A stretch of 63,737 nucleotides of DNA, filler included, from Sphacelaria rigidula (Eukaryota): the NCBI GenBank assembly GCA_964200075.2. It is 10 parts of 10 records of this genome, joined end to end, with 100 filler letters (N's around TTAATTAATTAA, not from the genome) between each part and the next. Parts side by side here need not be neighbours in the genome. Positions count along the whole stretch, not along the records: positions 38,306 to 44,588 come from CAXNAA020021024.1; 9 more parts are not named here. The stretch is one strand, 5' to 3'. The position numbers were made by a program, and so were the translations under genes. Under the pieces are notes generated by a model. That model did not search any database, was not told the DNA's origin, and was given only the letters and a program-made list of their open reading frames with translations. Of this stretch, positions 6,286 to 61,704 are shown piece after piece (the stretch's first letter is position 1; each line of letters begins with the position of its first letter).

Positions 6286-6385
6286 NNNNNNNNNNNNNNN
6301 NNNNNNNNNNNNNNNNNNNNNNNNNNNNNTTAATTAATTAANNNNNNNNNNNNNNNNNNNNNNNNNNNNNNNNNNNNNNNNNNNN
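6286..6385. other. Artificial contig linker
   Basis: 44 N + TTAATTAATTAA + 44 N. Confidence 0.98.
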
Positions 6386-12669: not shown

Positions 12670-12769
12670 NNNNNNNNNNNNNNNNNNNNNNNNNNNNNNN
12701 NNNNNNNNNNNNNTTAATTAATTAANNNNNNNNNNNNNNNNNNNNNNNNNNNNNNNNNNNNNNNNNNNN
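12670..12769. other. Artificial contig linker
   Basis: 44 N + TTAATTAATTAA + 44 N. Confidence 0.98.
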
Positions 12770-18176: not shown

Positions 18177-19007
18177 ATGAGCGGAAACCCCTTGAACCCG
18201 CAAGCCCAACCCTTCTACCCATCTGGGTCGAGTCAACGGCCTCCAGTGCAAGCCCCCCAACAGCAGCAACCTTTCGTCCCTGTTCAGCAACAACAGGCTG
18301 TCGCACACCCTCAGCAACAGTTTGTTGGACCTGTTCAGCAACAGCAGGCTGTCGCACCCCCTCAGCAACAGTTTTTTGGACCTGTTCAGCAACAGCAGGC
18401 TGTCGCACCTCCTCAGCAACAGTTTTTTGGACCTGTTCAGCAACAGCAGGCTGCCGTACCCCCTCAGCAGCAGGCTGTTGGACCGCTTCCGCAGCAACAG
18501 GTGGCCGCACATCCTCATCAGCAGGTTCTGCAACAGCAACAGCAAGAGTGCTTTGGCCCGATGCCTCAGCATGTCCCGTCGTCTATTCCTCCGCCTCTTC
18601 AGCCGGCAATGCCAGTCTCTGTGCCTCAGGGGGGCTCATCAAGCCCCGGCCGCTGGAAATTTCACTCATTCCCAGCTGCTACCTCCGCCACCGTTGCTCC
18701 CGCAGCGCCGCTTGAGATTTACGGTCGCGCCAGACCCGGTTAGTCTCTACTGCAGTCCGTTCTACGGATCTCTCAACCCCTCTGGTGTAACCCCGGCAGC
18801 CCAATCCAGGCTGGATGGGCTGACTTCGTATGGGGCCACGTACCCTCGTGTTCCCGCGCCATACCCGTCTAATCACAACTGGTCGGCTGTACTGAAACAA
18901 CAACAAGCGATGTCCCGTCAAGCAAACACTTTGGCCACGCTTCTCGGTTCCAAGGACACCGATACCATCGTTTACAAGGGACGAGCTGTAGATCACAATA
19001 CAGCACT
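18177..19007 (+). pseudogene. PAM2-motif, Gln/Pro-repeat ORF (frame change near 18720; ends in a repeat at the contig edge)
   Basis: MSGNPLNPQAQPFYP matches PAM2 LNxxAxxFxP; about five 51-bp units encoding PVQQQQAVAPPQQQFFG; a second frame continues ...NHNWSAVLKQQQAMSRQANTLATLLG. Confidence 0.5.
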
Positions 19008-20679: not shown

Positions 20680-20900
20680 AACCTAACGCTAACCCTAACC
20701 CTAACCCCAACCCAAGGCATACCGACAATCCTCGGATGAGGGGGGTACGAAGTGTGTCCCCTAGGCAAAGTATGGCGTTGGTAGACCTGAAATCGGCGCC
20801 GCCGATTTTGACGAAAACGCGCTCTGCGCACGCCAGGAGCACTTGGGGCTGTCAGCCCCACTGAAGATCCGAATATCGGTGCTCACACTCAAATCAAGTA
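20680..20900 (+). repeat. Dispersed repeat starting with degenerate (CCCTAA)n; second copy at 23200-23433
   Basis: CTAACCCTAACCCTAACCCCAACCCAAGGCATACCGA...GTCAGCCCCACT.AAGATCCGA...CACACTCAAATCAAGT in both copies. Confidence 0.75.
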
Positions 20901-22905: not shown

Positions 22906-23199
22906 ATTACTTACCAGTGTCCACATCCTTCCACCCCCCTCAATGGTCTTATGGCATGCATGATCATGAGTACACCCCCCCGATACACTCGAGTGGTGCA
23001 AAAAGGTCTGTGCAGTTGATGTCGGCACGGTGGTATCCAGAGCGTAGCTGGGTAGGCACAACAGTGCGTGTTCAAGCAAAGTGAAGGGGGAGTTTGAGCC
23101 AATCGATCGGATATGTTACAGGCTGGTTTAGGGTGAACGGAGGTGGGTTAGTCAGCGTTGGGCTACGATATGTTCATGGTTGATGCATTTTACAACTAT

Positions 23200-23433
23200 C
23201 GCTACCCCTAACCCTAACCCAAACCCAAACCCCATCTCCAACCCAAGGCATACCGAGAACCGCCGGCCAAGGGATGTATATAGCGTGCTCTAGGCAGAGA
23301 GCGGCCTTGATAGACCCAAAATCGGCGCCTGTGGCGCCGATTTGAACAAAAACGCGTTTGGCGCACGCGAGGAGCACACGGGACTGTCAGCCCCACTAAA
23401 GATCCGATTTCGTTGTTCACACTCAAATCAAGT
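23200..23433 (+). repeat. Second copy of the (CCCTAA)n-headed dispersed repeat
   Basis: Matches 20680-20900. Confidence 0.75.
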
Positions 23434-35784: not shown

Positions 35785-37070
35785 ATGAATAATCAAGGCG
35801 AGTTATCGATCATCCAGCTGATCAAAAGCATCAGCAAATTCGACGGAAATAACTTTCTACAATGGAAGCGCAGTACACGCGCCCTGATCTCCCTTACGCA
35901 TCCAGGAATTTCAGATATTTTGAACGGGGGAAAACGCCCCGTGGAAATTTCTGATGACGTGGATCAAGTTCAACATGTTCAATCAACTACAATTTCACGA
36001 CACACGTGAAGATCAAGTCGACCTCGCACCCGCTCCCAAGGACCTCCACTACGTTCATCTAAAGGGGAAGCGGGAACAAATGTTCAAGTTCAGGATCCTG
36101 CTGTTGGAGTGGTGGATCCTGTCGGTGGTGAAGCGGATCCTACCGGTGGTGAGGAGGATCCTGCTGATGTCGAAGAGGATGCCTCCCGTCACCTTACTCA
36201 TGTAAGAAATGTGGTAAATGTTGAAGAGATTGAAAACTGGGACCGCTGTAACGAACAGTTGTTCAATATTTTATATTTGACAACTACAGGCCCAGCTAGT
36301 AGTTACCTCCTCCGGTACGAGCCGAAGGGTCTGAAAAAACCTAACGTCAAAATCGCATGGGAAGCTCTGGTCGCAAAGTACGAAAATTCTTCAAAGCAGA
36401 GGCGGCGCATTCTGATCCGACAGCTAGATAACACCAAAATGTCTCCTGGGCAAGAACCAGGCGAGTTTTCGACCAAGATTTTTTAACTTCGCGATCAGCT
36501 TGTCTACATGTGTGAACCTATCTCCGATGAAAGACTAACGGACATTGTGGTTGAGGGTCTGACTGATGACTACGACCGCGTCAAATATGATGCTGAGCGT
36601 GACCCCGACCTCAGCATCTCTGATATTGAAGTCACGCTGCGGAACATGTATGCAAATCGACTTGCACGCGGAATTTTGGGAAACAAGGGGTTACGTGGTC
36701 GTGAATCAGCCATGGTCGCGGCCTTGCCCCCTGACTCATCATTGACATCATCAAAGTTCAAGGGAAAATGTCACCCGTGTGAAACATTAGGTCACCATAT
36801 CAGAGGCTGCCGATCCAGAATATAGTCAAACAGCAGGAACAGATCGGTCAAGTGGTGTAGCCTTCATCGTGCCGATAAACACGACAACTCAGAGTGCAAG
36901 AACCAAATGAACAATGGAAATACGGCCAGGAGTCACAGCCATCATGGTAGAAACAACGATCGTCGTCGACAAAACACCCGCCACAACAACAGCCGCAGCA
37001 ACAGCAACAACTACAACTCTGGCTCCAATGCGACCAACATCCCAATCAACAGAACCAGGCAAATACTGTC
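35785..37070 (+). pseudogene. gag: Copia gag, interrupted by stops
   Basis: KFDGNNFLQWK; LFNILYLTTTGPA...AWEALVAKY (UBN2-like); zinc knuckle CHPCETLGHHIRGC; stops at 36007, 36484 and 36823. Confidence 0.85.
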
Positions 37071-37073
37071 ATC

Positions 37074-38175
37074 GTGAACCCTACAACCGACTCGTCGACT
37101 ACTGTACCCTACAATCATCAGGCTCAAGAAATCAGCGGCATATCAGCTTCGACGGTGACTGACGCGTGCCCGTCACCAGGTGGTTTGGGTTTTTCGCTTT
37201 GTGCTGGTCCTGATCGCAAGGATAATATTAGGAAGCCTGTGTCTATATCATTTAAGATGTCGTGTGATTCAGGAGCAACATTTCACTACCTGGACAACGA
37301 GCTCCTACCAGAACTCGAACACGATATGATTAGCTACGTTAAGCTGGATCGCCCAATGCGGATCCTAACTGCAGGAGGTCATCTAATTTGCGGAACAGGG
37401 GAAGGAGTGCTCCTGTCCATCGTGAAAGATCAGCAGGGAAATGAGCATTCCATCCGGCTCCCAGCCATCATCGTTCCGGGGTTGGGAAAGCATCTCTTTT
37501 CTCCTATTTATGCATTACGAACAAAGGGGGTCGGAACAACTTTTGGTGTCAATTCTTATGTTGATCTTGGACAATTGAGAGTACCACTTCGCTCTGAGGA
37601 CAACAGCTTGTCCCATTACATTGACATGAAGATCATTCGGGGTTACAAACCCGTCGACTCAAGAACCGGGTCAGCACTAGCGGCTGAGGTGGTGTCAGGA
37701 GAACATATGGGCATGGGGACAGCTTTAACTTATATGACGATTGCGGGAGACGCTTCAGCTCTTTCTACTACTGTGACTGCAGGAGTTTGGCATCGGAGAC
37801 TGGGTCATCCCGCGGATCCAGCGATGCGTCGGGTTATGAATATTCCCGAAATAGGTGTGAAATTTACGGGGTCACTTTCCTTTTGTGACACTTGCATGAT
37901 AAATAAAAGCACCCAAACAAATCATCCCAAAACCTCCGACTCTACGTCAGTGACAGAACGTCTGCAACTAGTAACTACTGACCTCTCGGGTCCCATCTTA
38001 CCAACTGCATTAGGTGGTTACAAGTACATGGCGAAATTTGCCGACCAATACAGTCGACTAAAAGTTGTATGCTTCATCAAGGCAAAAAGTGAGGCGCTCT
38101 CAACACTCATCAAGTACATCCAAGACGTGGCGATTCCCTTAGGACGTAGGGTACACCGCCTACGGTCAGATCGTG
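37074..38175 (+). pseudogene. pol: Copia pol: aspartic protease, GAG-pre-integrase and integrase N-terminal part
   Basis: CDSGATFH protease; WHRRLGHP...CDTC HHCC; LVTTDLSGP...GGYKY...DQYSR...RLRSDRGG (first two integrase Asp). Confidence 0.92.
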
Positions 38176-38205
38176 GGGGGGGGGGGGGGGAATCGATTGT
38201 TGGTT

Positions 38206-38305: not shown

Positions 38306-38307
38306 AT

Positions 38308-38400
38308 CCCTTCGACACGTGTGCCTGGACTAGGTGTACCAGGTGCAAGTGGGTGGGGCACATCGTAAGAAACTGCGTCAGAATGCCGATTCCGGAGTAA
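38308..38400 (+). CDS. gag: C-terminal end of gag with CCHC zinc knuckle (partial)
   Basis: PFDTCAWTRCTRCKWVGHIVRNCVRMPIPE*: exact C-x2-C-x4-H-x4-C at 38335-38376; the preceding (H)PFDTC suggests a second knuckle. Confidence 0.75.
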   Translation, partial: PFDTCAWTRCTRCKWVGHIVRNCVRMPIPE

Positions 38401-39319
38401 GAGGGCAAGGCGGAGCGGAAATGCAGATAAAGGCGGTCAAGAGCGGAGAGGGACGGGGCAGATCGCGTTCCTGGAGATTGCGGGGCGCGGCGACTGGGCA
38501 ACGGAGCGGGAGCGGAGGGGGCGGTCATCGCGCATTTGTAAATGAGTTGTGGTAGGCGGTTCGATTGGATATTCAAGCGGAGATGAGGCGAGTAGGGATG
38601 CACAAATATAAGCGCGTTGCGGGTAATGGAGGAAAGAAGCGAATGCAAAGTACAGATGCTTGGGGGGGCGGGGCGAAACTGGAGAGCAACGGTAGAAGGT
38701 GGGAGAGCGGGCGGCGTTCTTGTAGCTGGTGCGGTGATACGTTTGTGGGCGTGAACGATGGGAATGATTGGGCATAGTCGACGTCCATTGGTTGGGGGTA
38801 AAGGGTGGCGGGAGTGATAATGATAGCGTTCATGAATAAATAAATGAATTAAAAAAAAAATGACAGCTGTGATCATTCTGCTTCGCGAGAGCGGGCGGAA
38901 GAAAATTTCCCCGCACGGCCATTCGGGCGGACCAGCCTATCACTTGTGGCAGCTGAACGATGGCAGCCATCACCCCAACGACGTGCGCATATGTCTGGAC
39001 AGCTTACGACGATACTAGATAGCTTCTGAATTGCAACAGCGGCCCCGGTCGCACTGCGGATCTGGGTGAAATCCTGCCAGATTTGTAGCAGTATACTAGT
39101 ACATCTTGGTAGGACGCCTGGAGACGCGTTGAGGCTGGAGATTGCTGAACTCATCCGCGATATACTGGGATGGGACTTTCGCCGACGGCAGCATCGTTTG
39201 ACTGTTTGCGTGAGGCATTTGTATAAACATTCACAGTCAGGAAAAAAAAAAAAACGGGGCAAGTATTTTAATTTCATGCATGCTTGCACGCGTCATACCT
39301 TGCCTCACGTACATCATAG

Positions 39320-41623
39320 GTGGATGCAGAGGCCTGGTTGAAAGGTTTACGTATCAGAAGACGTGCAGTGGGGCCTATCAGCGCCCCAGCCCCAACGCTC
39401 ACAAAGCAAGAACAACAATGGGCACCAGCAGCGGGTTGGCACCAGAGCAGCGCAAGCACGACGCCCACGCCAGACGATGTTTTACGCACGCAGTTTGTAT
39501 CGGCGACAACAGTACCGTGGGCTATAGCCTTTCGTGATGACAAACATTTCGTGTCGGGGATGCTCGAACAACATGTTGACTTTTGGGACAAAAAATTGTT
39601 AGCAGGACACCCGGACCGTGGCGAAATTTTACCATGGACTGTACACGGGGTAAGCGTATTCGATTTCTTGCACGATCGAGCAAAAGGGAAAACAGTATAC
39701 CAGCCGTTCGCACCAGACGCTTTCCCAGGACGTGTTTTTAACAATCGGATCCCGCGAGAACATGCCGCTTTCGTAGAGGACGAGGTAAACGCTTTGGTAG
39801 GCAGGGGATGCCTAGTACCTTGGGCAACAGTTAAGGGCCCAGGAGGAAAACAAAGACCTAGACTTATACAAGCTTTGAGCGTCGAGCCCACAAAGCCGCG
39901 GCTAGTATACGATGCAAGGCCACTTAACGAGCACTGTAAGCACGTATCTTTCTCTATGGACACGGTGGGTGCGATTACGGGCATGGCATGGCAAGGATGC
40001 TCTCAGGGTTCTGTAGATGACAAAAGCGGGTTTCATCACATCATGCTGCATCCAGACTCGTGTCCGTTGTTTGGTGTCGAATTCCAGGGAGTGGACTACG
40101 TATGGGCGGTAATTCCATTTGGTTGGAATGAGAGCACGTACGTCTACCACAAAGTTTCGGGAGTCAGATCGTATTTCTTGAGGGCGCGTGGCATACCCGC
40201 AACTACATACATTGACGACGCGTGGTTGACAGGCCCGTTGAACACAAAAGGGCAGGTAGAGCAGTTGCAGTGGAGAGCAGCGGCAGCAGTGATAGCTCTG
40301 GCGGTGTCTGTTTCCTTCTTGGCAGGGTTTTACTTGAGCATCAAAAAGTGCGATCTTGTCTCGCGGAGAGTGCAGCGATACTCAAGTATTTTATGTGACA
40401 GTGAACGAGCGGCGTACCGTGTTCCGCAGGACAAGCTGGACAAACTTGGCACCTTGATTAGGAGGGTGATGGAGCATAGGCCAGTCGGTGCGACTACGCT
40501 GCAAAAGATCGCGGGAAAGTGCATGAGTATGAAGGTAGCGGTGCGGCCGGCGTCCCTGTGGACGCACTTTATTTTCAAGGGTGTACAAGCGCTCGAAAAA
40601 AAAGTTAAAGGGAAATGGTTGACGGAGATCCCAGTGCAGAAAGGTAGCGGCCTCTGGGATGAGTTAGAGCTATGGTTAGGCGTTACGCAGCATTCGCAGC
40701 AGGGTCCGTAGTATTCCTCCAAGCACTATGCCCTGGCCGTCACGAGAGGCGCAACAGATGCTTCGTCAGCAGCATGGTGGGGTGTGATGCGGGTGGACGG
40801 TCAGCTTTTCCAAGCCGGTGCAGAATTTTCCTCAGTATGGATACAGCAGCACATCAACGCCAAGGAGGCACTCGCACTAAATAAGGTCTTGCGGGAATTT
40901 TGCAGGGGAGCGCCGGGGCGACTTAGAGGAGCGCAGGTTTTCGTGGATGTTGACAATACGTCAGTGGTGGATGCGTTTGCACGAGGCAGATCGAGAAACC
41001 CCAATACACATGCACTGTTGCTTGATCTATATAACCTGCAGAGGAGAGAGGGTTTTTGATTAAGGTTGCAATGGGTACCATCCGCGCAAAACAGCGAAGC
41101 AGATGCTATTACCAGACCAGGTAGGGTGGAGTTTGTGAGGTTGCGCCATGAGATTTTCGCGGGTTTGTGGATGTTCTTCGGGGCATTTGACGCAGACCTC
41201 ATGGCGACAAACGTCTCAGTGCAACGGGTGCCACGAGGGCAACCAAGAGAGGGCAGTGGATTGCCGTTTTGCGCGCGATACGCATGTCCGGGAACGGCGG
41301 CAATAGATGTGCTGGTGCAAGATGTTGCATTAATTCCGGGCTTGAGCGAGAAGGGTTTTAATTTCTGTTTCCCGCTCGTGTGTACGGTGGGGGTGGTGTT
41401 GCAACGAATGGAGGAATGCAGGGCAAAAGCAGTGGTCGTGGTACCAGCGACAAAAGGGGCTTGGTATCCTAGGTTAAGGAGTGCGCGTGTCAAGGAGAAC
41501 TTGATAGCAAAGGAAGGAGAGCGGCATGCTTTCTTCTCGGAGCACCATGCAAAGGGTGTAAGGCCGTTTGTATTTGAGAAATGGGACATGGTAGCGGTGG
41601 AGCTTAATTTTGGACTGGCATAG
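39320..41623 (+). pseudogene. pol: DIRS-type pol: reverse transcriptase, RNase H and N6-adenine methyltransferase-like domain; one frame with two premature stops (40709, 41057)
   Basis: RT: PRLVYDARPLN, DDKSGFHHI, IPFGWNES, YIDD. RNase H: TDASSAAWWG, HINAKEALA, DVDNT, NSEADAITR. MT-like: FDADLMAT, FCARY, AIDVL, NFCFPL, AVVVVP...WYPRL. Confidence 0.93.
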
Positions 41624-41674
41624 TCAGCCCGTTATGCCTTTGTCACTTCATGGTCCTCCGTGCTGCTGTGCTAG

Positions 41675-43154
41675 GTGATGGAGGGCACAGATACCTGGGT
41701 GGCGACATTTACGCCGATAGGAGAGAGCGGAGGAGGAATAACGGCAGGAACAGCCTCGCTAAGGGTGCCCCAAGGCGCTACCAGAATTGCAAATCGGGTG
41801 CCTAGAGTGCTGTGCGGAGCATGCCTAGGGCATAATGATGGAAATTACAGGTTTTGTCAGAGCTGTTGTGTGCCCGCCAAATTAACGCGGCCGGCACCGC
41901 GACCGCAAGGGGAGGCCCAATTGCATATCAACGACAGTTTGCTTAATGACAGGCCGGCGGTGTTTGCCGCAGCAAGAGCGGCTAAAGTGGGGCATAGGCG
42001 TAAGAGTGTCGTAGCAGATGATGTCGACCGTTTCATACGACAGCGTTCGGGCGGCGCCGTAGGATGGGAAAATGCCACGCCAGAGCAAGTCGTAGATTAT
42101 CTGGCATACAAGGACTCGCAGGGCACGGGTACAAAGGTAGTGCACGTTCTGCATTGCCCACAGATAGGCACAGACAGCTTGGTACAATGCAAAGAGCTAG
42201 GTCTCGGGTGCGCGCAGCGGTATGCACATACTTCGCTAAATAAGCAGTACATATCGAAACTGCGCTGTGCGTATACGGAGATCCTCGCTAACAGCGACGA
42301 CTGGTCCGTCACAGAACACAGAGGTAATCCGGTCAAGAGTGTGCCAGTGACGAAATACTTAGCATTCTCGGCCGCAGAGCAGCAGAAGGCGGGTGTGGCG
42401 ACAAAGCAAGCCAGGCCGCTGCTGCGGCCGGACCTAGCCGCGATTGTCGCAGCTATCAGAATACAGTTAGCAGGAACTGAAAACCCCGCGGAGTCCATTG
42501 CTTTAGTTAGGGATATAACATGGCGTTGTTCACGGTGGCTTTACGTACGGCGGGTAGAGGAGGAGATTTGACGCATATGATGGCAGGAAGTGTTTTACGG
42601 CTGCCCGAGGATCAGGGTATCGTCTTGAACTTTCGTTTCACCAAAACGCTGAGGGAGGGTTCGCGGCATGTATGCCACGTAGCCCCAGACAGGGATATGC
42701 CTGACACGTGTGCAGTAGCGGCGCTACAAGTATAATATGCGCAGGCCATGAAATCATGCGGCTGGCAGGGAAGCCAAGGTTTCCTTTTCCCCGAGATACG
42801 GAGGACAGGTGATATTAAGTTGGCAAAGTGTGATACCACGATGACCCCGCGGGCGACGGCGCGACTGCAGAAGCATGCCCAGCGAGCAGGTTTGGGGGAT
42901 AAAAACATTCGATGCATTCATTCCGGGTGGGGGCGGCGGTAGCGCGCACCATTGCGGGCCAGGATGTGGCGACAGTTATGGCGCAGATTGGATGGAAGTC
43001 GAGCCGGGTTGCGAGTCGGTATATTGGGCAAACAACGCGACCGGAGCGACACGGGGGTATGGCGCAGGAGGTCGCCGAAGCGGATTACGCGGATACCAAT
43101 ACTTTTGTAGCAAGCCTCGACCCGGCGGAATTCGGTTCCTTTAACGTACCATGA
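41675..43154 (+). pseudogene. Tyrosine recombinase with N-terminal zinc ribbon and ALOG-type domain; frameshifts near 42519 and 42905, stop at 42733
   Basis: CGAC...FCQSC; VVDYLAYKDSQGTGTKVVH...C...C...CAQRYAHTSL...ISKLRCAY...GNPVKS.PVTKYL...EQQKAG; catalytic TAGRGGDL, HSFRVGAA, IGWKS...RY. Confidence 0.9.
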
Positions 43155-43389
43155 GGAGGCTGAGGGAGGGTCCACTGACAAGGGACCCGCAAGGATGCAT
43201 AGAGCAGTTTGCAATGTGGGGATGCGGGATACAGCTGGCTAAATTAAGGTCGGTTGCACTTGCAAAAAAATAAAAAATAAAAAATAAAAAATAAAGAAAG
43301 AGAAGGAGCACAGACAAGAAGACGTACAAGCCAAGAAGTGTGGGTGAGCCGCCGGGCGCCGGTAAAGAAGTCTGGGTGAGGTCGCCGGC

Positions 43390-43842
43390 GGGGCTGGAGA
43401 CCTCATTCCATCCCAATACTAACAGGACGAAGAGTGCAAGAGAGAATATACTGCAGTATTTTCACATTCCATTATGTATGGCCGGATTTTGGGGTTTCGA
43501 CACAAAAAGGCGGGGTTAAGGGAAGGGGAAGAATACAAAGAACGTCCCGAGAACAACAGGCACAACCCCGTATCAAGCGCATATAATCAGTCTGAAATAA
43601 GTAGCAAGAAAAATACAGCCCTAAAAGGGTGCAAGAAAGGATAGGATTTTGGCCATCCCGCCCACCCAGCAGACAGCGGAGCAGAGAGCGAGGGTTGAGC
43701 CTTGTCTCGCCAGGGAGCTTGGCGCTCCCTCGCGAGCGCAAGGGGTCCTCTCAACCTGGTGAGGGCACCAGCCTGGGGCTGGAGACCTCATTCCATCCCA
43801 ATACTAACAGGACGAAGAGTGCAAGAGAGAATATACTGCAGT
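43390..43842 (+). repeat. Split direct repeats: perfect 68-bp repeat at 43390-43457 and 43775-43842 flanking 317 bp
   Basis: GGGGCTGGAGACCTCATTCCATCCCAATACTAACAGGACGAAGAGTGCAAGAGAGAATATACTGCAGT occurs twice. Confidence 0.9.
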
Positions 43843-43845
43843 TTA

Positions 43846-44328
43846 GGCCGGATGTTATGGCGAACAGATTTTTGGCCCACGGGTTGTTCACCTAAGGGAC
43901 ATTTGACGCCCTTTGTGATCCCCAGACAGGGAAAATCGCCAACACACGTCTTGGACACTTTTCATCACCCCACAGAGAGGAGCCCAGCCCATTTTTCAGA
44001 TTCGCTTGGCTCCGAGGTTTCAAGATTGGCCGCTGAACAAACATTCGTGTGCGAAAATCCGTGCTTGCCGACCTCCGCCAGTTCGCCTAATATTCTGTGG
44101 AGATCGCCGTAGATTTTGTTGCTCACGGATTTTTGTTCAGCGGCCGCTCTCGAAATCCTGGAGCCAAGCGAATCCAAACAGTGGGCTAGGCTTCTCTCTG
44201 CAGGGTGATGCAAAGTGTCCAAGACGTGTGTTGGCGATGTTCCCTGTTTGGGGGTAAAAAAAGTGGCTCAAACGCCATAAAAGTGAACAATCCGTTGGCC
44301 GAAAGTCTGAGTGCGATAACATCCGGCC
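43846..44328. mobile_element. PIF/Harbinger (Tourist-like) foldback MITE, family B, 483 bp
   Basis: TIRs GGCCGGATGTTAT / ATAACATCCGGCC; TTA on both flanks (43843-43845, 44329-44331); halves are self-complementary over most of their length. Confidence 0.88.
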
Positions 44329-44588
44329 TTATGGACGACTTTCGCAGGACGGGATAGTCTGACATGTTGAATCCGTGGTCGTCGTTTACCGTGTTTTGGG
44401 GGATATCGGTCGCTACTGTTGGTCGATTGTTGTCTTACTTCTTCCGTTTCTCTTATATATCCATTACATTGCGGATATTGCTGCTTCGTTGTTGCCCACG
44501 AAGGAGGGGGAATGAATAGTTTATGCCTTTTCAGTTGCTGTTTCTGGAGAGTCATCCTAAGATAGGGGGGGGGGGGTATTCGGTTGCA

Positions 44589-48279: not shown

Positions 48280-49010
48280 TAGGCAAGGTAGGTACCCGGT
48301 ACCGGTATTTGGTACATCTTATACCCTACCGTACAGGTCCAATCGGGTATTTTCAAATGTCATACCTACGATACCCACGATACCACGGTATTTCGATATG
48401 TCGATACCTACCGTACTCGCCCGATCAGGTATATTCAAATGTCATGCCTACGATACCCACGATACCACGGTATTTCGAGATTTCGATACCTACCCTACCC
48501 GCCCAATCGGGTATTTTCAAATGTCGTACCTACGACACCACGGTATTTCGAGACTTCAATACCCACCGTCCGTACCCGCTCAATCAGGTATTTTCGAATG
48601 TCGTACCTACGATACCTACGATACCACGGTATCTCGAGACTTCAACACCTACCGTACCCGCCCAATCGGGTATTTTCAAATGTCGTTCCTACGATAAAAT
48701 ATATCACGGTACTTCGAGACTTCAACACCTACTGTACCCGCTTAATCAGGTATTTTCAATGTCATACCTACGATACCTACGATACCTACGATTCCACGGT
48801 ATCTCGAGATTTCAACACCTACCGTACCCGCTCAATCAGGTATATTCAAATATCGTACCTTCGATACCTACGAAACCTACGATACCACAGTAGTTCGAGA
48901 TTTCAATGCCTACCGTGCCCACTCAATCGGCTATTTTCAAAACTCATACCCACGATACCCACGCATACCACGATCTGGGATACCCTGGTAAATACCGAGG
49001 ATATATTCGG
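48280..49010 (+). repeat. Element made of ~70-90 bp tandem units (intronic); second array at 49947-50250
   Basis: Unit CTACGATACCACGGTATTTCGAGA(C/T)TTCAACACCTACCGTACCCGCTCAATC(A/G)GGTATTTTCAAATGTC repeated about 8 times; both arrays share start and end motifs. Confidence 0.85.
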
Positions 49011-49045
49011 TGAATACCGGACGCGATGCACTCCCCACGGTGCAG

Positions 49046-49089
49046 CGGCTGGTCCCAACTTACGCAACGGCCACAAATTGTTGGAGCAG
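49046..49089 (+). CDS. Probable next small exon of the same gene (RLVPTYATATNCWS)
   Basis: Acceptor CTCCCCACGGTGCAG, donor AG|GTATGT, phase compatible with the exon ending at 47972. Confidence 0.55.
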
Positions 49090-49312
49090 GTATGTATTGT
49101 TTTCACAAGTAATACAGTATATACCCAGATTTCCTCTTTTTTCGTGTTTGGATCAATTCGAATGAACTTCTTATTATGTAGTGTGGAGTGCGGTCGATGT
49201 TTTTCTTCGAACTGAGAGGTCCACCGTATTTCTGTTCTTACAATGCTTGAACTCGAATTTATAATTAGTAATTATTGGCTCGCGGAGAAAAACTACAAAA
49301 CAGTAAAGCCAA

Positions 49313-50780
49313 GCTTTTTCGATCGAAATATGCGGTCGAAAGGCACGAAGCGGCACCTGACTCCCATCTTACAGACCACCACGTCAAATAATACCCGTTC
49401 ACAGAACCATGCTAACTTCATCCAACTCATTCTCAGCTACCACCGTAACCCTGCAGTATCGAGTACGAATTGAGCACAGAGATGGATACACTGCAGTAGT
49501 TGGGTATACTTTGTTTTTGACTAGCGAAAACTTGCGCATGTCCTTTCATGGTGGGGATCAGCGACGGAACTGCGTAGTATGGGGGGCAACCGAGTTGTGT
49601 GCACGCTCATGGACAGTGCAGGCAATACAAAGCTGCATGTTGTTGAAGTCCTTTTCACGTCGCAATATAAGCAGAAAGAACTGATAGTCCTGGGCTGTCT
49701 GCACGGCACGTTGCCCGCTTCTCTTTAATATCCTGCTGTACGAAACACGCGCGCGCGCCTTCAAGACACTGCTTGCAAGCAGTGCAGACAGTACAGACTG
49801 TACTGTACACGAGTGAGCATGTACCGTTTCAGGAATTTCACTGTCATTTTTCGATCGAAAGCTTGAAAATTCGCTTGGACCAAACTTGACAAAAATGAGG
49901 GTGTTCGCTCTAATCAATTCCACCGCCCCATTTTTTCGATTAGAGGGTAAGGCAGGTACCCGGTACCGGTATTTGGGACATCTCATACTCCACCGATACT
50001 GGTCCGCTCGGTTATTTTCAAAACCCATACCTACGATACCCACGATACCACGGTATTTCGAGATACCAGTACCTACCGTACCCGCTCAATCAGGTATTTT
50101 CAAAACTTATACCTACGATATCTACTCGTACGATACCACGGTATTTCGAGATTTCAACACCTACCGTACCCGCTCAATCGGGTATTTTCAAAACACATAC
50201 CTTCGATACCCACGCATACCACGGCATAGGATATCCCTGTAAATACCGGGGGAACGGTCGGCACGGTGCCTTACCTATGGTCCCTGTGATAATTTGGGTA
50301 TGACTGTTATAGTCTACCCATACTTTGGGTAGATTGGGCACCACCTGAAATACTTCACGTACCCATATTTCGGCAGGCATTCTCAGCAAGACCTGGGTAT
50401 TTTACCGGAGTATTCAAAAGTACATACCCTACCTGGCCTGCTCTTGACTTTTTTTTATCGAGAACATGCGGAGGAAAGGTACGAAGGGGCGCTCGGCTCA
50501 TTATCTTGCAGACCACCACGCCAGATAACACCCGTTCACAAAACCTTTGCAAACCCCACACAACTCATTCTCAGCTACAGCCGCAACCCGGCAGCATAGA
50601 GCACGAGTTGGGCACACAGGGATAGATACACTGCAGTAGCTGGGTATGATGTGTTTGTTCTTCGTTGGTGAAAACTCGAGCATCTTCTTTCATGGTGGGG
50701 ATCGGCGACGGAACTGCGTGGTAGGGTGGATGACCGACTTGCGTACACTCATGGACAGTGCAGGCGGTATAAAGCTGCAA
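49313..50780 (+). repeat. Pair of ~330-bp diverged direct repeats (49313-49640 and 50449-50780)
   Basis: Shared CAGACCACCACG.CA.ATAA.ACCCGTTCACA, CAACTCATTCTCAGCTAC, GATACACTGCAGTAG and CTCATGGACAGTGCAGGC. Confidence 0.75.
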
Positions 50781-57354: not shown

Positions 57355-57454
57355 NNNNNNNNNNNNNNNNNNNNNNNNNNNNNNNNNNNNNNNNNNNNTT
57401 AATTAATTAANNNNNNNNNNNNNNNNNNNNNNNNNNNNNNNNNNNNNNNNNNNN
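57355..57454. other. Artificial contig linker
   Basis: 44 N + TTAATTAATTAA + 44 N. Confidence 0.98.
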
Positions 57455-59605: not shown

Positions 59606-61704
59606 TGCGTTGTCGTCCCATCTGTTTTGGACGCCGGTCTACACCTTCCGGTATATGTGGGCGCATCAGCCGGGGTCACACAGGAGGAAGGTCAACACAG
59701 GAGCTTATTTATTTATTTTTAGGACCCCACCTTCCTTCTGCGGAGCTTGCATGTATTTTTTATCGCGAGAAGGGTTCAGCAGTCCCTTTCCATCGTCGAC
59801 CGTTCAGTCGAATTTTGCAAGGTTGTGTTCTGTAGGGTACGGTTTTCTGTATACCCGGGGTATTTTGCCGGGTATTTACCGTACCCGACAGTTCTGTGAC
59901 TTCTGTAACACTTTCATACCGGTACCCGACAGTTGTGTACACTCTGTAAGACTTTCATACCTTTACCCGATAGTTCGGTAATCTCTGTAAGACTCCCGAA
60001 CCGTTACCGGGGGGCACGGGTACGCTCTTGATAAGATACCCGATTGCGGGTACGTTTTTCTGTGCAACCTCCGTACCCTACCCGACAGTTTCTGTGAGTT
60101 CTGTGAGCCTTCCATACCCTTACCCAACACGTCTGTGAGTTCTGTACAAGATATTTACCCGTACCCGCAGTGCGGGTATGCTCTTGATGGATACCCGATT
60201 GCCGGTACCGGTTTTCTGTAAGCCTCCCATACCGTACCCGATAAGTTATGTGATTTCTGTAAGACTTTCATCCAGTAGCGGTATCCGACAGTTCTGTGAG
60301 CTCTGTAAGCCTTCCCTTCCTCTACCCAGGGTTAGGGTATACCGTTATAGATATACCCAATTGCAGGTATGAGCACAGATATATACCTTAGGGAGACACG
60401 GATATAGGTTCGATCCAAGCACAACTTCATGACCTGGCCATGTACCTCCCATCGATCAACCCACCCAACTCCTTCATTCAAAACTGCACACCAACAATAA
60501 TTCAATGTTGAAAAGTTCTGTAGTGTGGGATCTGGCGGGATACGAGGTACCGCTGAGTGGAAACACCAAACATGAGCAGCACTGCAGGCCGTCAGAATGG
60601 ATCACCCCCAGACTCGAGTGGTGACTCGAGCGGGAACGGTTCATCTGCGCCACCAGGGGATCAAGTAGCAAGACGCCCGTCATCGACGTTGATGGTGGTT
60701 GTGTCGTGGTCATCAAACTCCAGGCCGTTATTAACATGTACAGCACAGAGTATGAGCTACCACCAAAACTCGTCAAGGCCGTCGTCGATTTTGTCGCATG
60801 TCGAAGGGCTTTCAGAGAACGGGCAGCCGTGAATGGTCCTTCATGTACTCTCTGGGAGTGTACGTGAAGCTGATAGATGTTGACGATCCCATGCATATGT
60901 ACTACTACGATTGTTCGTGTGGTCTTTCTCTATCGACCCCGTGAAGCCGTTCAGAGTTTTGGTGGACTGTCATCTTCTGTATTTCGCCACTGTTGTAGTG
61001 AGGTAGGTCCCACCACTAGGGTGATGATAATACCAAGGTCGTGGTTTGTAGGGTACGGTTTTCTATATACCCGGGGTACTTTGCCGGGTATCTACCGTAC
61101 CCGACAGTTTTGTAAACTCTGCAAGATTTCCATACCGGTACCCGAGAGTTCTGTAATCTCTGTAAGACCTCCATACCCATACTCGATAGTTCTGTGAGTT
61201 CTGTAAGCCTCCCGTACCATTGCCGGGGGGCACGGCTATGCTCTTGATAAGACACCCGGTTGCGGGTACATTTTTCTGTGCAACCTCCATACCCTACCCG
61301 GCAGTTTCTGTGAGTTCTGTAAGCCTCCCATACCCTTACCCAACAGTTCTGTGAGTTCTGTACGAAACCTTCACCCTAACCCGAGGGGCTGATATGCCCT
61401 AAAAGAGTTACCCGATTGCCGGTACCGGTTTTCTGTAAGCCTCCCATACCGTACCCGACAGTTCGGTAAACTTTGTAAGACTTTCATACCGGTAACGATG
61501 GTTTTGTACGTTCTGTAAGGAATCTCGTATCCTGCAGAACGTACCCGTACCTTACAGAACACAACCTTGCAATTTTGTGTACCCACGACATAGGCGCTCT
61601 CCACTGTTGGACATGGTGTGAGAAAAAATCCCAGATCGATCCGAGAATTGAACCCACGACCCAACCGTCAGAAGGTTCGAGGTTACCAACTGAGCCACCG
61701 GGGC
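59606..61704 (-). mobile_element. SINE family 1 copy split by a 1.75-kb insertion
   Basis: 3' part at 59606-59817 and tRNA head at 61570-61704 rejoin as GAATTTTGTGTACCCAC, matching the intact copy at 21968. Confidence 0.8.
59818..61569. mobile_element. hAT-like non-autonomous composite element with duplicated left arm
   Basis: TIRs CAAGGTTGTGTTCTGTAGGGTACGG / CCGTACCTTACAGAACACAACCTTG; TSD GAATTTTG / CAATTTTG (7/8); many TACCCG and TTCTGT subterminal motifs; second left end at 61034. Confidence 0.85.

Follow-up and report, generated by a model that had tools for sequence, protein, structure and literature searches.

How does a retrotransposon produce its enzymes when the gene which encodes them has no start codon? 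This question is raised by a DIRS-like element in the genome of Sphacelaria rigidula (GenBank assembly GCA_964200075.2). The stretch of DNA analysed, here called the window, is 63.7 kb long (63,737 nucleotides, nt), and one of its pieces (38306-44588) carries the element. Judged by its gene content, the segment 38306-43842 belongs to a tyrosine recombinase (YR) retrotransposon of the DIRS order (PAT-like), of which it covers the 3' five-sixths; the copy is dead. The segment is composed of the end of gag, a 919-nt spacer, pol, the YR gene and a terminus with putative split repeats. Comparison with relatives points to an answer which we hold with moderate confidence. The pol gene would have no start of its own and would begin at a conserved splice acceptor, a similar site would stand before YR, and the enzymes would be made from spliced RNAs. 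The full-length unspliced RNA would serve both as gag mRNA and as template for reverse transcription, and the spliced RNAs would join an upstream exon bearing an ATG to the pol acceptor and probably also to the YR acceptor. Splicing itself and the choice of donor are what we infer from the genomic sequence.

The pol open reading frame (ORF) is situated at 39320-41623 on the plus strand. It has 768 codons and contains a conserved N-terminal region, a reverse transcriptase (RT), an RNase H-like part and a conserved C-terminal domain. The original prediction, in which all coordinates and letters were found correct, had noticed that this frame opens without ATG, its first codon GTG (39320) following immediately on CATCATAG. 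Before this codon lies a pyrimidine-rich tract ending in TAG (39293-39319, plus strand), a candidate 3' splice site from which an exon would start at 39320 in phase 0. The pyrimidine fraction over 20 nt of this tract is 0.70, compared with 0.45 in the coding part. In pyrimidine richness the junction is second among the 145 AG sites within 1 kb on either side, and it is placed, with the YR site at 41675, in the top five of the 203 plus-strand YAG sites between 38336 and 43850. The first in-frame ATG is codon 81 (M81, 39560). This methionine was considered as the start of pol and rejected, because residues 1-80 are conserved in the alignment with relatives (W6, P25, L27, E31, W34, P66 and W67). 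Coding in pol therefore starts at or before 39320.

The junction was compared in two sets of related DNA, metagenome contigs (L001-L013) with ~30% pol identity and eukaryote-like contigs in the bacterial metagenome-assembled genome (MAG) G001, namely L014 (48%), L016 (36%) and L017. The junction set has 11 loci. The window, L014 and L016 represent one type, and L001, L002, L004/L010, L007/L009, L008 and L012 represent the metagenome clade. They amount to nine distinct elements, as L007 hardly differs from L009 and L004 is close to L010. In all 11 loci, with identity down to ~30%, the first conserved pol codon directly follows a YAG. It is TAG in eight (window, L014, L016, L004, L007, L009, L008 and L012) and CAG in three (L010, L001 and L002). 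The 20 nt before the junction AG are 55-90% pyrimidine, while the sense strands overall have 45-58%. In nine of the 11 loci, no more than four YAG sites (counting the junction) of the 58-145 AG sites within 1 kb reach the pyrimidine content of the junction; the weaker loci are L014 (14 of 92) and L001 (12 of 102). L007 (...tacattttgtatttgttttcctttttag/GAAAAT) and L004 (...ctcgttttttctcctgtgcatag/GACTCA) are examples, the slash marking the junction. Across the loci pol opens with GTG, GAT, GAC, GAA or ACT and in none with ATG, and the first in-frame ATG comes 13-157 codons into pol at non-homologous positions. The 300 nt upstream contain 2-9 stops in the pol frame (seven in the window), and gag readthrough or frameshifting on unspliced RNA is therefore excluded. 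In the CAG loci the frame is open upstream, but it yields a junk translation of the pyrimidine tract. Since the tract is kept in these loci too, the conserved feature is the AG with its tract and not the stop codon.

A database search with pol gave 42 relatives, of which the best are ORFs of 740-780 residues with 45-51% identity, one of them from Laminaria digitata. Eleven of the 42 were aligned. The called ORF begins at the junction column in five of them and further in in another five, and one (P0011) runs 16 residues upstream. A pyrimidine tract and YAG thus stand at a conserved position, and the sequence upstream is not conserved. The boundary between 39319 and 39320 is probably a real 3' splice site in phase 0. 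As read from these alignments, the conserved junction excludes an own ATG for pol.

The window copy is dead. Its pol has two in-frame stops (TAG at 40709-40711 and TGA at 41057-41059), both at positions where relatives have tryptophan, and its YR gene is split over three frames by two frameshifts and a stop at 42733-42735. The family is multi-copy in the sequencing run X1, and the other copies are open at the following places. Position 41059 is G in all other contigs, and relative to the window the other copies show -5 nt near 42515, -3 nt at 42732 and an additional A after 42909. Such damage gives some ground for reading the missing ATG and the closed frames as mutations of a dead copy, whose ancestor had ATG-initiated or overlapping ORFs. 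The same start architecture is however found in intact pol ORFs of 744-772 codons (L004, L007, L008 and L010), and the 740-780-residue database ORFs which start at or after the junction suggest it as well. Decay is hardly credible as the explanation and is already largely refuted.

An intron was found in the gag gene of the same elements. In the metagenome clade gag is split, with an ATG-initiated exon 1 of 234-255 codons which ends in phase 0 at CTGGAG/GTAGCT in L009, GAG/GTATGT in L004 and GAG/GTATTT in L003. The intron is AT-rich, has 229 nt in L009 and ends there with ...ctttttcag/GAT; ...ccgtttgcag/GAT is another end observed. Exon 2 carries two CCHC knuckles and likewise begins in phase 0. 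Within this intron a 2-nt indel distinguishes the near-identical L007 and L009, and the segment is in frame by chance in L007 and in the 75-member protein cluster P0191. In G001:C315, a contig from the MAG of L014, YR is followed after ~350 nt by a gag-exon-1-like ORF ending TACGAG/GTAAGAG and a 112-nt segment ending ...ttctcttttcacgaacag/G. L009, L004, L003 and C315 thus show a GT...AG consensus at a conserved position, variable length and sequence, and tolerance of indels. The window lacks this part of gag. Only ~350 nt separate YR from the gag start of the next unit in L004, L009 and G001:C315, and the units are therefore head to tail or were assembled from circles.

The YR gene of the window is broken and situated at 41675-43154 on the plus strand. 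Frame 2, to ~42481, encodes the N-terminal zinc-ribbon and ALOG-like part, frame 1 (42523-42906) starts the catalytic part, and frame 0 (42912-43154) has the H-x-x-R and R-Y motifs. As had been described, YR shares the reading frame of pol and opens at 41675 behind GTGCTAG. The pyrimidine-rich tract ending in this TAG (41649-41674, plus strand) has a pyrimidine fraction of 0.70 and stands one codon before the YR ATG, as the frame reads GTG ATG with the ATG at 41678-41680. In the group of the window this ATG lies 40-46 codons before the zinc-ribbon motif, and an acceptor-like YAG precedes it by one codon in the window, four in L016 and 13 in L017 (ttctgtttatttgtcag/GCG). In the metagenome clade the conserved YR sequence starts before the first ATG, directly after a polypyrimidine tract with AG and in phase 0. 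Such starts were observed in L006 at 2270 (tttttctttttccctttcatgtttcag/AAG, pyrimidine fraction 0.92), in L003 at 2218 (...ttttcttttcacag/AAG) and in L004 at 3363 (...gtgtgctttag/GCA). L008 has a 2-nt deletion just behind its acceptor-like YR site. The boundary between 41674 and 41675 is possibly a 3' splice site. A YR acceptor is plausible and less secure than the pol acceptor, and on a spliced RNA the YR of the window could also use its own ATG as start.

Upstream of pol, the C-terminal end of gag is situated at 38308-38400 (plus strand, frame-1 translation). It contains a CCHC knuckle of the form C-x2-C-x4-H-x4-C at 38335-38376 (Pfam zf-CCHC E=0.026, under the cutoff) and the stop TAA at 38398-38400. 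The relatives also carry a gag with CCHC knuckles 5' of pol, and the rest of the window gag lies upstream, outside the piece. The gag-pol spacer which follows (38401-39319, plus strand) has 919 nt, is non-coding with stops in all frames, and shows about the same contig depth as pol in run X1. BLASTN and TBLASTX comparison of the window spacer with the L014 spacer upstream of the junction gave no similarity. The spacer is probably an intron, or the 3' portion of a longer one; within it lie an AATAAA-rich tract with an A10 run at 38834-38860, TATAAA at 39222-39227 and an A14 run at 39242-39255. The AATAAA-rich tract and the TATAAA recur in L014 (~520-541 and 786-791) and L016 (~360-380 and 541-546); over the three elements they are placed 310-480 nt and 70-145 nt, respectively, 5' of the pol junction. 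They might serve as polyadenylation signal and internal promoter, or be plain AT-rich intron sequence.

Candidates for the 5' splice site of pol are positions 38365, 38397 and 39210 and the gag exon 1 donor of the relatives. GTRAG motifs in the window element are few and unremarkable. The original prediction had chosen 39210, with a 110-nt intron (39210-39319, plus strand, GTGAGG...CATCATAG) joining the open frame 39030-39209 to pol, the same donor feeding YR, and a further donor at 41591 giving a pol-YR fusion. Frame 0 (39030-39209, ...RRRQHRLTVC) does close on a codon boundary before GTGAGG, the 110-nt segment is A-rich with the A14 run, its removal keeps the frame, and GTGAGG matches GTRAG. 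L014 also has a GTGAGA 127 nt before its junction, in phase with an open frame, and the 112-nt intron of C315 makes short introns possible. The evidence supports the 3' end of this intron and not its 5' end. The upstream exon has no ATG in the window or in L014 (48% identical to the window in pol), these two regions show no similarity, and reading by eye gave no GTRAG within 200 nt before the junction of L016. The motif ATG/GTAGCG is present at 41590/41591, but it is placed inside the conserved pol C-terminus, as is the better-matching GGT/GTAAGG at 41558. These sites precede 10-22 conserved pol codons in which M, A, E and F are nearly invariant, and the Val codon which supplies the GT at 41591 and 41558 is replaced by R, I, T, S, P or L in other relatives. 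This scheme as a whole appears very improbable, and 39210 is the least likely donor among the candidates. The further AT-rich tract noted in the original prediction, which ends in TGACAG (38861-38866), is A-rich with a pyrimidine fraction of 0.25; it is therefore not acceptor-like and was rejected as an acceptor.

Two other donor positions were considered for the splicing of pol. In the first (Model A), the donor which closes gag exon 1 in phase 0 (GAG/GTA... in the relatives; in the window it would lie upstream of the piece) would give fusions of an N-terminal Gag part with Pol and with YR. These would be in frame because the donor and the pol and YR acceptors are all in phase 0. In a wider form of this model, one gag exon 1 donor would be joined to gag exon 2, pol or YR by alternative choice of the 3' splice site, and a widespread DIRS/PAT-like clade would express all its proteins from one pre-mRNA. 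Fusion to the N-terminal Gag domain would replace ribosomal frameshifting and explain how the enzymes reach the particle. This wider form is a tentative proposal, which we hold to be possible and rather doubtful. In the second (Model B), splicing would start from a donor at the gag stop codon and place pol beside gag. All six distinct elements with a visible gag end have a GT motif which overlaps the gag stop or follows it within 0-12 nt: L012 (TGA/GTATTT), L002 (TGA/GTGTGT), L004 (TAG TCT/GTGTGC), L009/L007 (12 nt after the stop), L001 (TAA TT/GTAATT) and the window (GA/GTAAGAGG, overlapping TAA). With the spacer removed, pol would follow the gag stop in frame in four of these six (L012, L002, L004 and L009); in the window and L001 it would be out of frame, and L009 would have two stops. 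Chance alone would more often than not place a GT within 15 nt, so that Model B is a lead only. The donor-like GTAAGA of the window (38397-38402, plus strand) overlaps the gag stop and is in phase 2 of the gag frame. A gag-pol fusion through it was rejected, as phase 2 does not fit the phase 0 of pol and a stop follows after seven codons. A -1 frameshift in the hypothetical spliced overlap was also rejected, with no slippery heptamer found by eye. Another GTAAGA at 38365 is in phase 0, but it lies within the zinc knuckle.

Several observations weigh against expression of pol by splicing. No donor is linked to the pol acceptor, the homology of the gag exon 1 end between the two clades was judged by eye only, and the YR of the window has its own ATG and needs no fusion. 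None of the listed sequencing runs is recorded as RNA; the contigs of three runs, only guessed to be RNA, were aligned to the element together with those of X1. The junctions 39209/39320, 39209/41675 and 41590/41675 are absent among the 15 of 79 joints listed for these four runs. The guessed-RNA runs cover 38936-39565 at a depth of 0-4 and reach 10-150 in the 3' half of YR and at the terminus. Run X7, one of these three, has a depth of 3.1-3.8 in two bins spanning 39146-39565, with no proposed joint among those listed. This coverage would fit the unspliced form, if X7 is RNA and one contig bridges the segment. Joints listed within YR, such as 42480>42619 with ends AA..GT, come from diverged copies and are not splice-like. 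A database search for longer proteins which join the upstream exon to pol found none, and a search with the L009 gag exon 1 for longer proteins gave only P0191, in which the intron is kept in frame.

When the pol N-terminus was compared by BLASTP with 190 stored proteins, the 16 residues of P0011 were the only upstream extension among close relatives. The extension of P0039 resembles a translated pyrimidine tract ending in Q, maybe CAG, and animal gene models also have extensions. The related protein P0064 (277 residues) skips the pol N-terminus: its gag portion, which carries CCHC knuckles, passes in frame into pol at about residue 73. This protein could be a deletion derivative or reflect the use of another acceptor. 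The guessed-RNA runs also show a depth of 10-150 over 42296-43765 compared with 0-6 over pol, which could represent 3'-coterminal subgenomic RNAs or cross-mapping of related repeats.

In the alternative explanation which dispenses with splicing, pol would be translated from an internally initiated or full-length RNA by GUG initiation, an internal ribosome entry site or reinitiation, and the tract with its TAG would be a translational element or a coincidence, the stop codon just closing the frame. It agrees with the failure of the listed joints and the protein searches to reveal a spliced form anywhere, and with further points against the splice acceptor: GTG, the first codon in the window and L014, is a near-cognate start, TATAAA stands 70-145 nt upstream in the window (39222), L014 and L016, and the pyrimidine tract of L014 is weak (0.55). 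P0011 has V at the junction, and the called ORFs of five of the 11 aligned relatives begin there. The gene caller evidently converts alternative starts to M, for P0004 and P0018 open with M at a place at which V stands in close relatives. The GTG and TATAAA therefore make internal transcription with GUG initiation possible for the subgroup of the window. In seven of the nine distinct elements, however, the first codon is GAT, GAC, GAA or ACT, none of them near-cognate, and GUG initiation cannot explain those seven. The three CAG loci have no stop, yet the tract and its position are kept, and the junction stops are all TAG (8/8), never TAA or TGA. Position -3 before GTG is T in the window and L014, a poor initiation context, and the same elements bear a canonical GT-AG intron in gag. 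Translation of pol without splicing is regarded as unlikely, and a spliced pol beginning at the acceptor remains the reading preferred here. The proposal that the enzymes come from spliced RNA and the template from unspliced RNA is thereby partly supported, by the conserved pol acceptor in nine elements, the gag intron and the acceptor-like YR starts; it is right in kind and wrong in particulars, namely in the donors.

The assignment of the element was analyzed by domain searches. Pfam RVT_1 matched the RT of the window at E=8.9e-6 with 26 bits, below the cutoff of 29.6 in this broken copy, and the relatives P0003 (38.8 bits) and P0010 (36.1 bits) are above it. A protein-cluster search gave RT-family clusters only. 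The YR sequences of L004 and L008 matched the window in TBLASTN at E=3e-38 and E=2e-32, respectively, spread over three frames, and R..D, H-S-F-R and R-Y motifs are visible. ALOG_dom was found in the window YR with 26.8 bits against a cutoff of 26.6, and Phage_integrase at best reached E=0.048, in L004. The Pfam scan of the window element gave neither rve nor protease matches. The C-terminal domain of pol, ~190 residues kept in the relatives, has no Pfam match at E<=1; it may correspond to the MT-like (DAM-like methyltransferase) domain which follows RNase H in DIRS/PAT-like elements, as opposed to Ngaro. The 3' terminal region (43375-43842, plus strand) contains two 85-nt direct repeats (43375-43457 and 43758-43842) with 68 nt identical, ~300 nt apart. 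This pair fits the B1-A2-B2 portion of split direct repeats; the 5' end with A1 is outside the piece, and the B1/B2-like pair alone is visible. In run X1 the contig depth jumps ~1000-fold at 43843-43845, with many loose ends, and the element appears to end at ~43842. Next to it, at 43845-44329, an unrelated inverted-repeat element was found, with arms 43912-44057 and 44116-44261 which are 83% complementary and outer arms 43845-43923 and 44251-44329. In run X1 it is covered ~1000 times as deeply as the DIRS-like element, and it resembles a highly abundant repeat of the miniature inverted-repeat transposable element type which adjoins the DIRS-like 3' end.

The window is made of ten pieces of ~6.28 kb, joined by spacers of the form N44-TTAATTAATTAA-N44 (6286-6385, 12670-12769, ... 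57355-57454), and adjacent pieces are therefore not genomic neighbours. Only the piece 38306-44588 is contiguous with the DIRS-like element, and the sequence before 38306 belongs to another piece. That piece contains a Ty1/copia-like ORF (36951-38205) with a GAG-pre-integrase domain (E=2e-7), which is unrelated to the DIRS-like element. Two segments which resemble each other (direct-repeat families D12 and D20) contain telomere-like repeats of the CCCTAA type, at 20682-20710 and 23195-23240. At 18201-18548, 48324-50206 and 59877-61494 there are repeat arrays, tandem or dispersed, whose units measure 51 nt, ~82-90 nt and 41 nt. A scan of the window found no second copy of the DIRS-like element, and a scan of viral contigs found no relative. 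Among the 401 genomes of the order of G001 which were searched, one of them not scored, only G001 carries relatives. At least four contigs (among L014-L023) of G001, which is labelled a bacterial MAG, bear eukaryotic DIRS-like retrotransposon genes. These eukaryotic contigs are most simply explained as contamination of the bin with host DNA.

Retroviruses and some long terminal repeat (LTR) retrotransposons are known to make spliced subgenomic mRNAs, examples being the env mRNA, the copia gag mRNA and the Ogre intron. As proposed for the present elements, their unspliced RNA is genome and template and spliced RNA serves particular proteins, and their introns persist since the unspliced RNA alone is copied. 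In those systems pol is normally made by frameshift or readthrough from gag, whereas here pol, and perhaps YR, would be the spliced product. The present elements also differ from them in element class and integration enzyme. Model B resembles the gag-stop-pol readthrough of the gammaretrovirus type, with pol in frame behind the gag stop in L012, L002, L004 and L009. Unlike that readthrough it needs a splice first, and the window and L001 would be out of frame and L009 would have two stops. The strategy is probably subgenomic splicing as known in retroelements, here in DIRS-like elements and feeding pol.

The elements share with DIRS/PAT-like elements a pol with RT and RNase H followed by a YR with an ALOG-like N-terminal domain, a gag with CCHC knuckles and the absence of a DDE integrase, and the repeat pair at the 3' end of the window element would fit split direct repeats. 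The published descriptions searched give separate or overlapping ORFs and do not state the mechanism of expression. The present elements depart from these descriptions in a pol without start codon, an acceptor-like start, and a gag which is split by a GT-AG intron in relatives. A full-text literature search over main texts, with key papers of Poulter and Goodwin outside its scope, found introns or splicing of natural DIRS, Ngaro or PAT-like elements undescribed; an earlier mention is possible. The text of Piednoel 2011 contains neither 'intron' nor 'splic', and Muszewska 2013 does not mention introns or splicing. The same holds for the accessible parts of the 2025 landscape of transposable elements in Ectocarpus and of a 2026 preprint on the DAM domain. 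In the 2020 NAR paper on DIRS-1 the only intron is an engineered marker, and term look-ups in Craig 2021 (Plant Cell), Hackl 2021, Krysinska 2026 and Gozashti 2025 gave no introns of DIRS, Ngaro or PAT-like elements. Spliceosomal introns are also kept by Penelope-like elements (PLEs), and the available excerpt of Craig et al. 2021 states that intron retention makes PLEs very unusual retroelements. According to such excerpts, PLE introns are mostly in the 5' untranslated region or pseudo-LTR (pLTR), and an unusual mode of priming is given as the reason why they are retained. Unlike the present elements, PLEs carry GIY-YIG endonucleases and lack gag and YR. Here the introns would survive retrotransposition because only unspliced RNA is copied.

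The expression of pol and recombinase in DIRS-order elements is poorly understood. If the splicing of pol proposed here is true, the ratio of Gag to enzymes would be set by splicing and not by recoding, and the genomic RNA must be protected from the spliceosome, as in retroviruses. Annotation pipelines which assume intron-free retrotransposon ORFs would then mis-model these elements.

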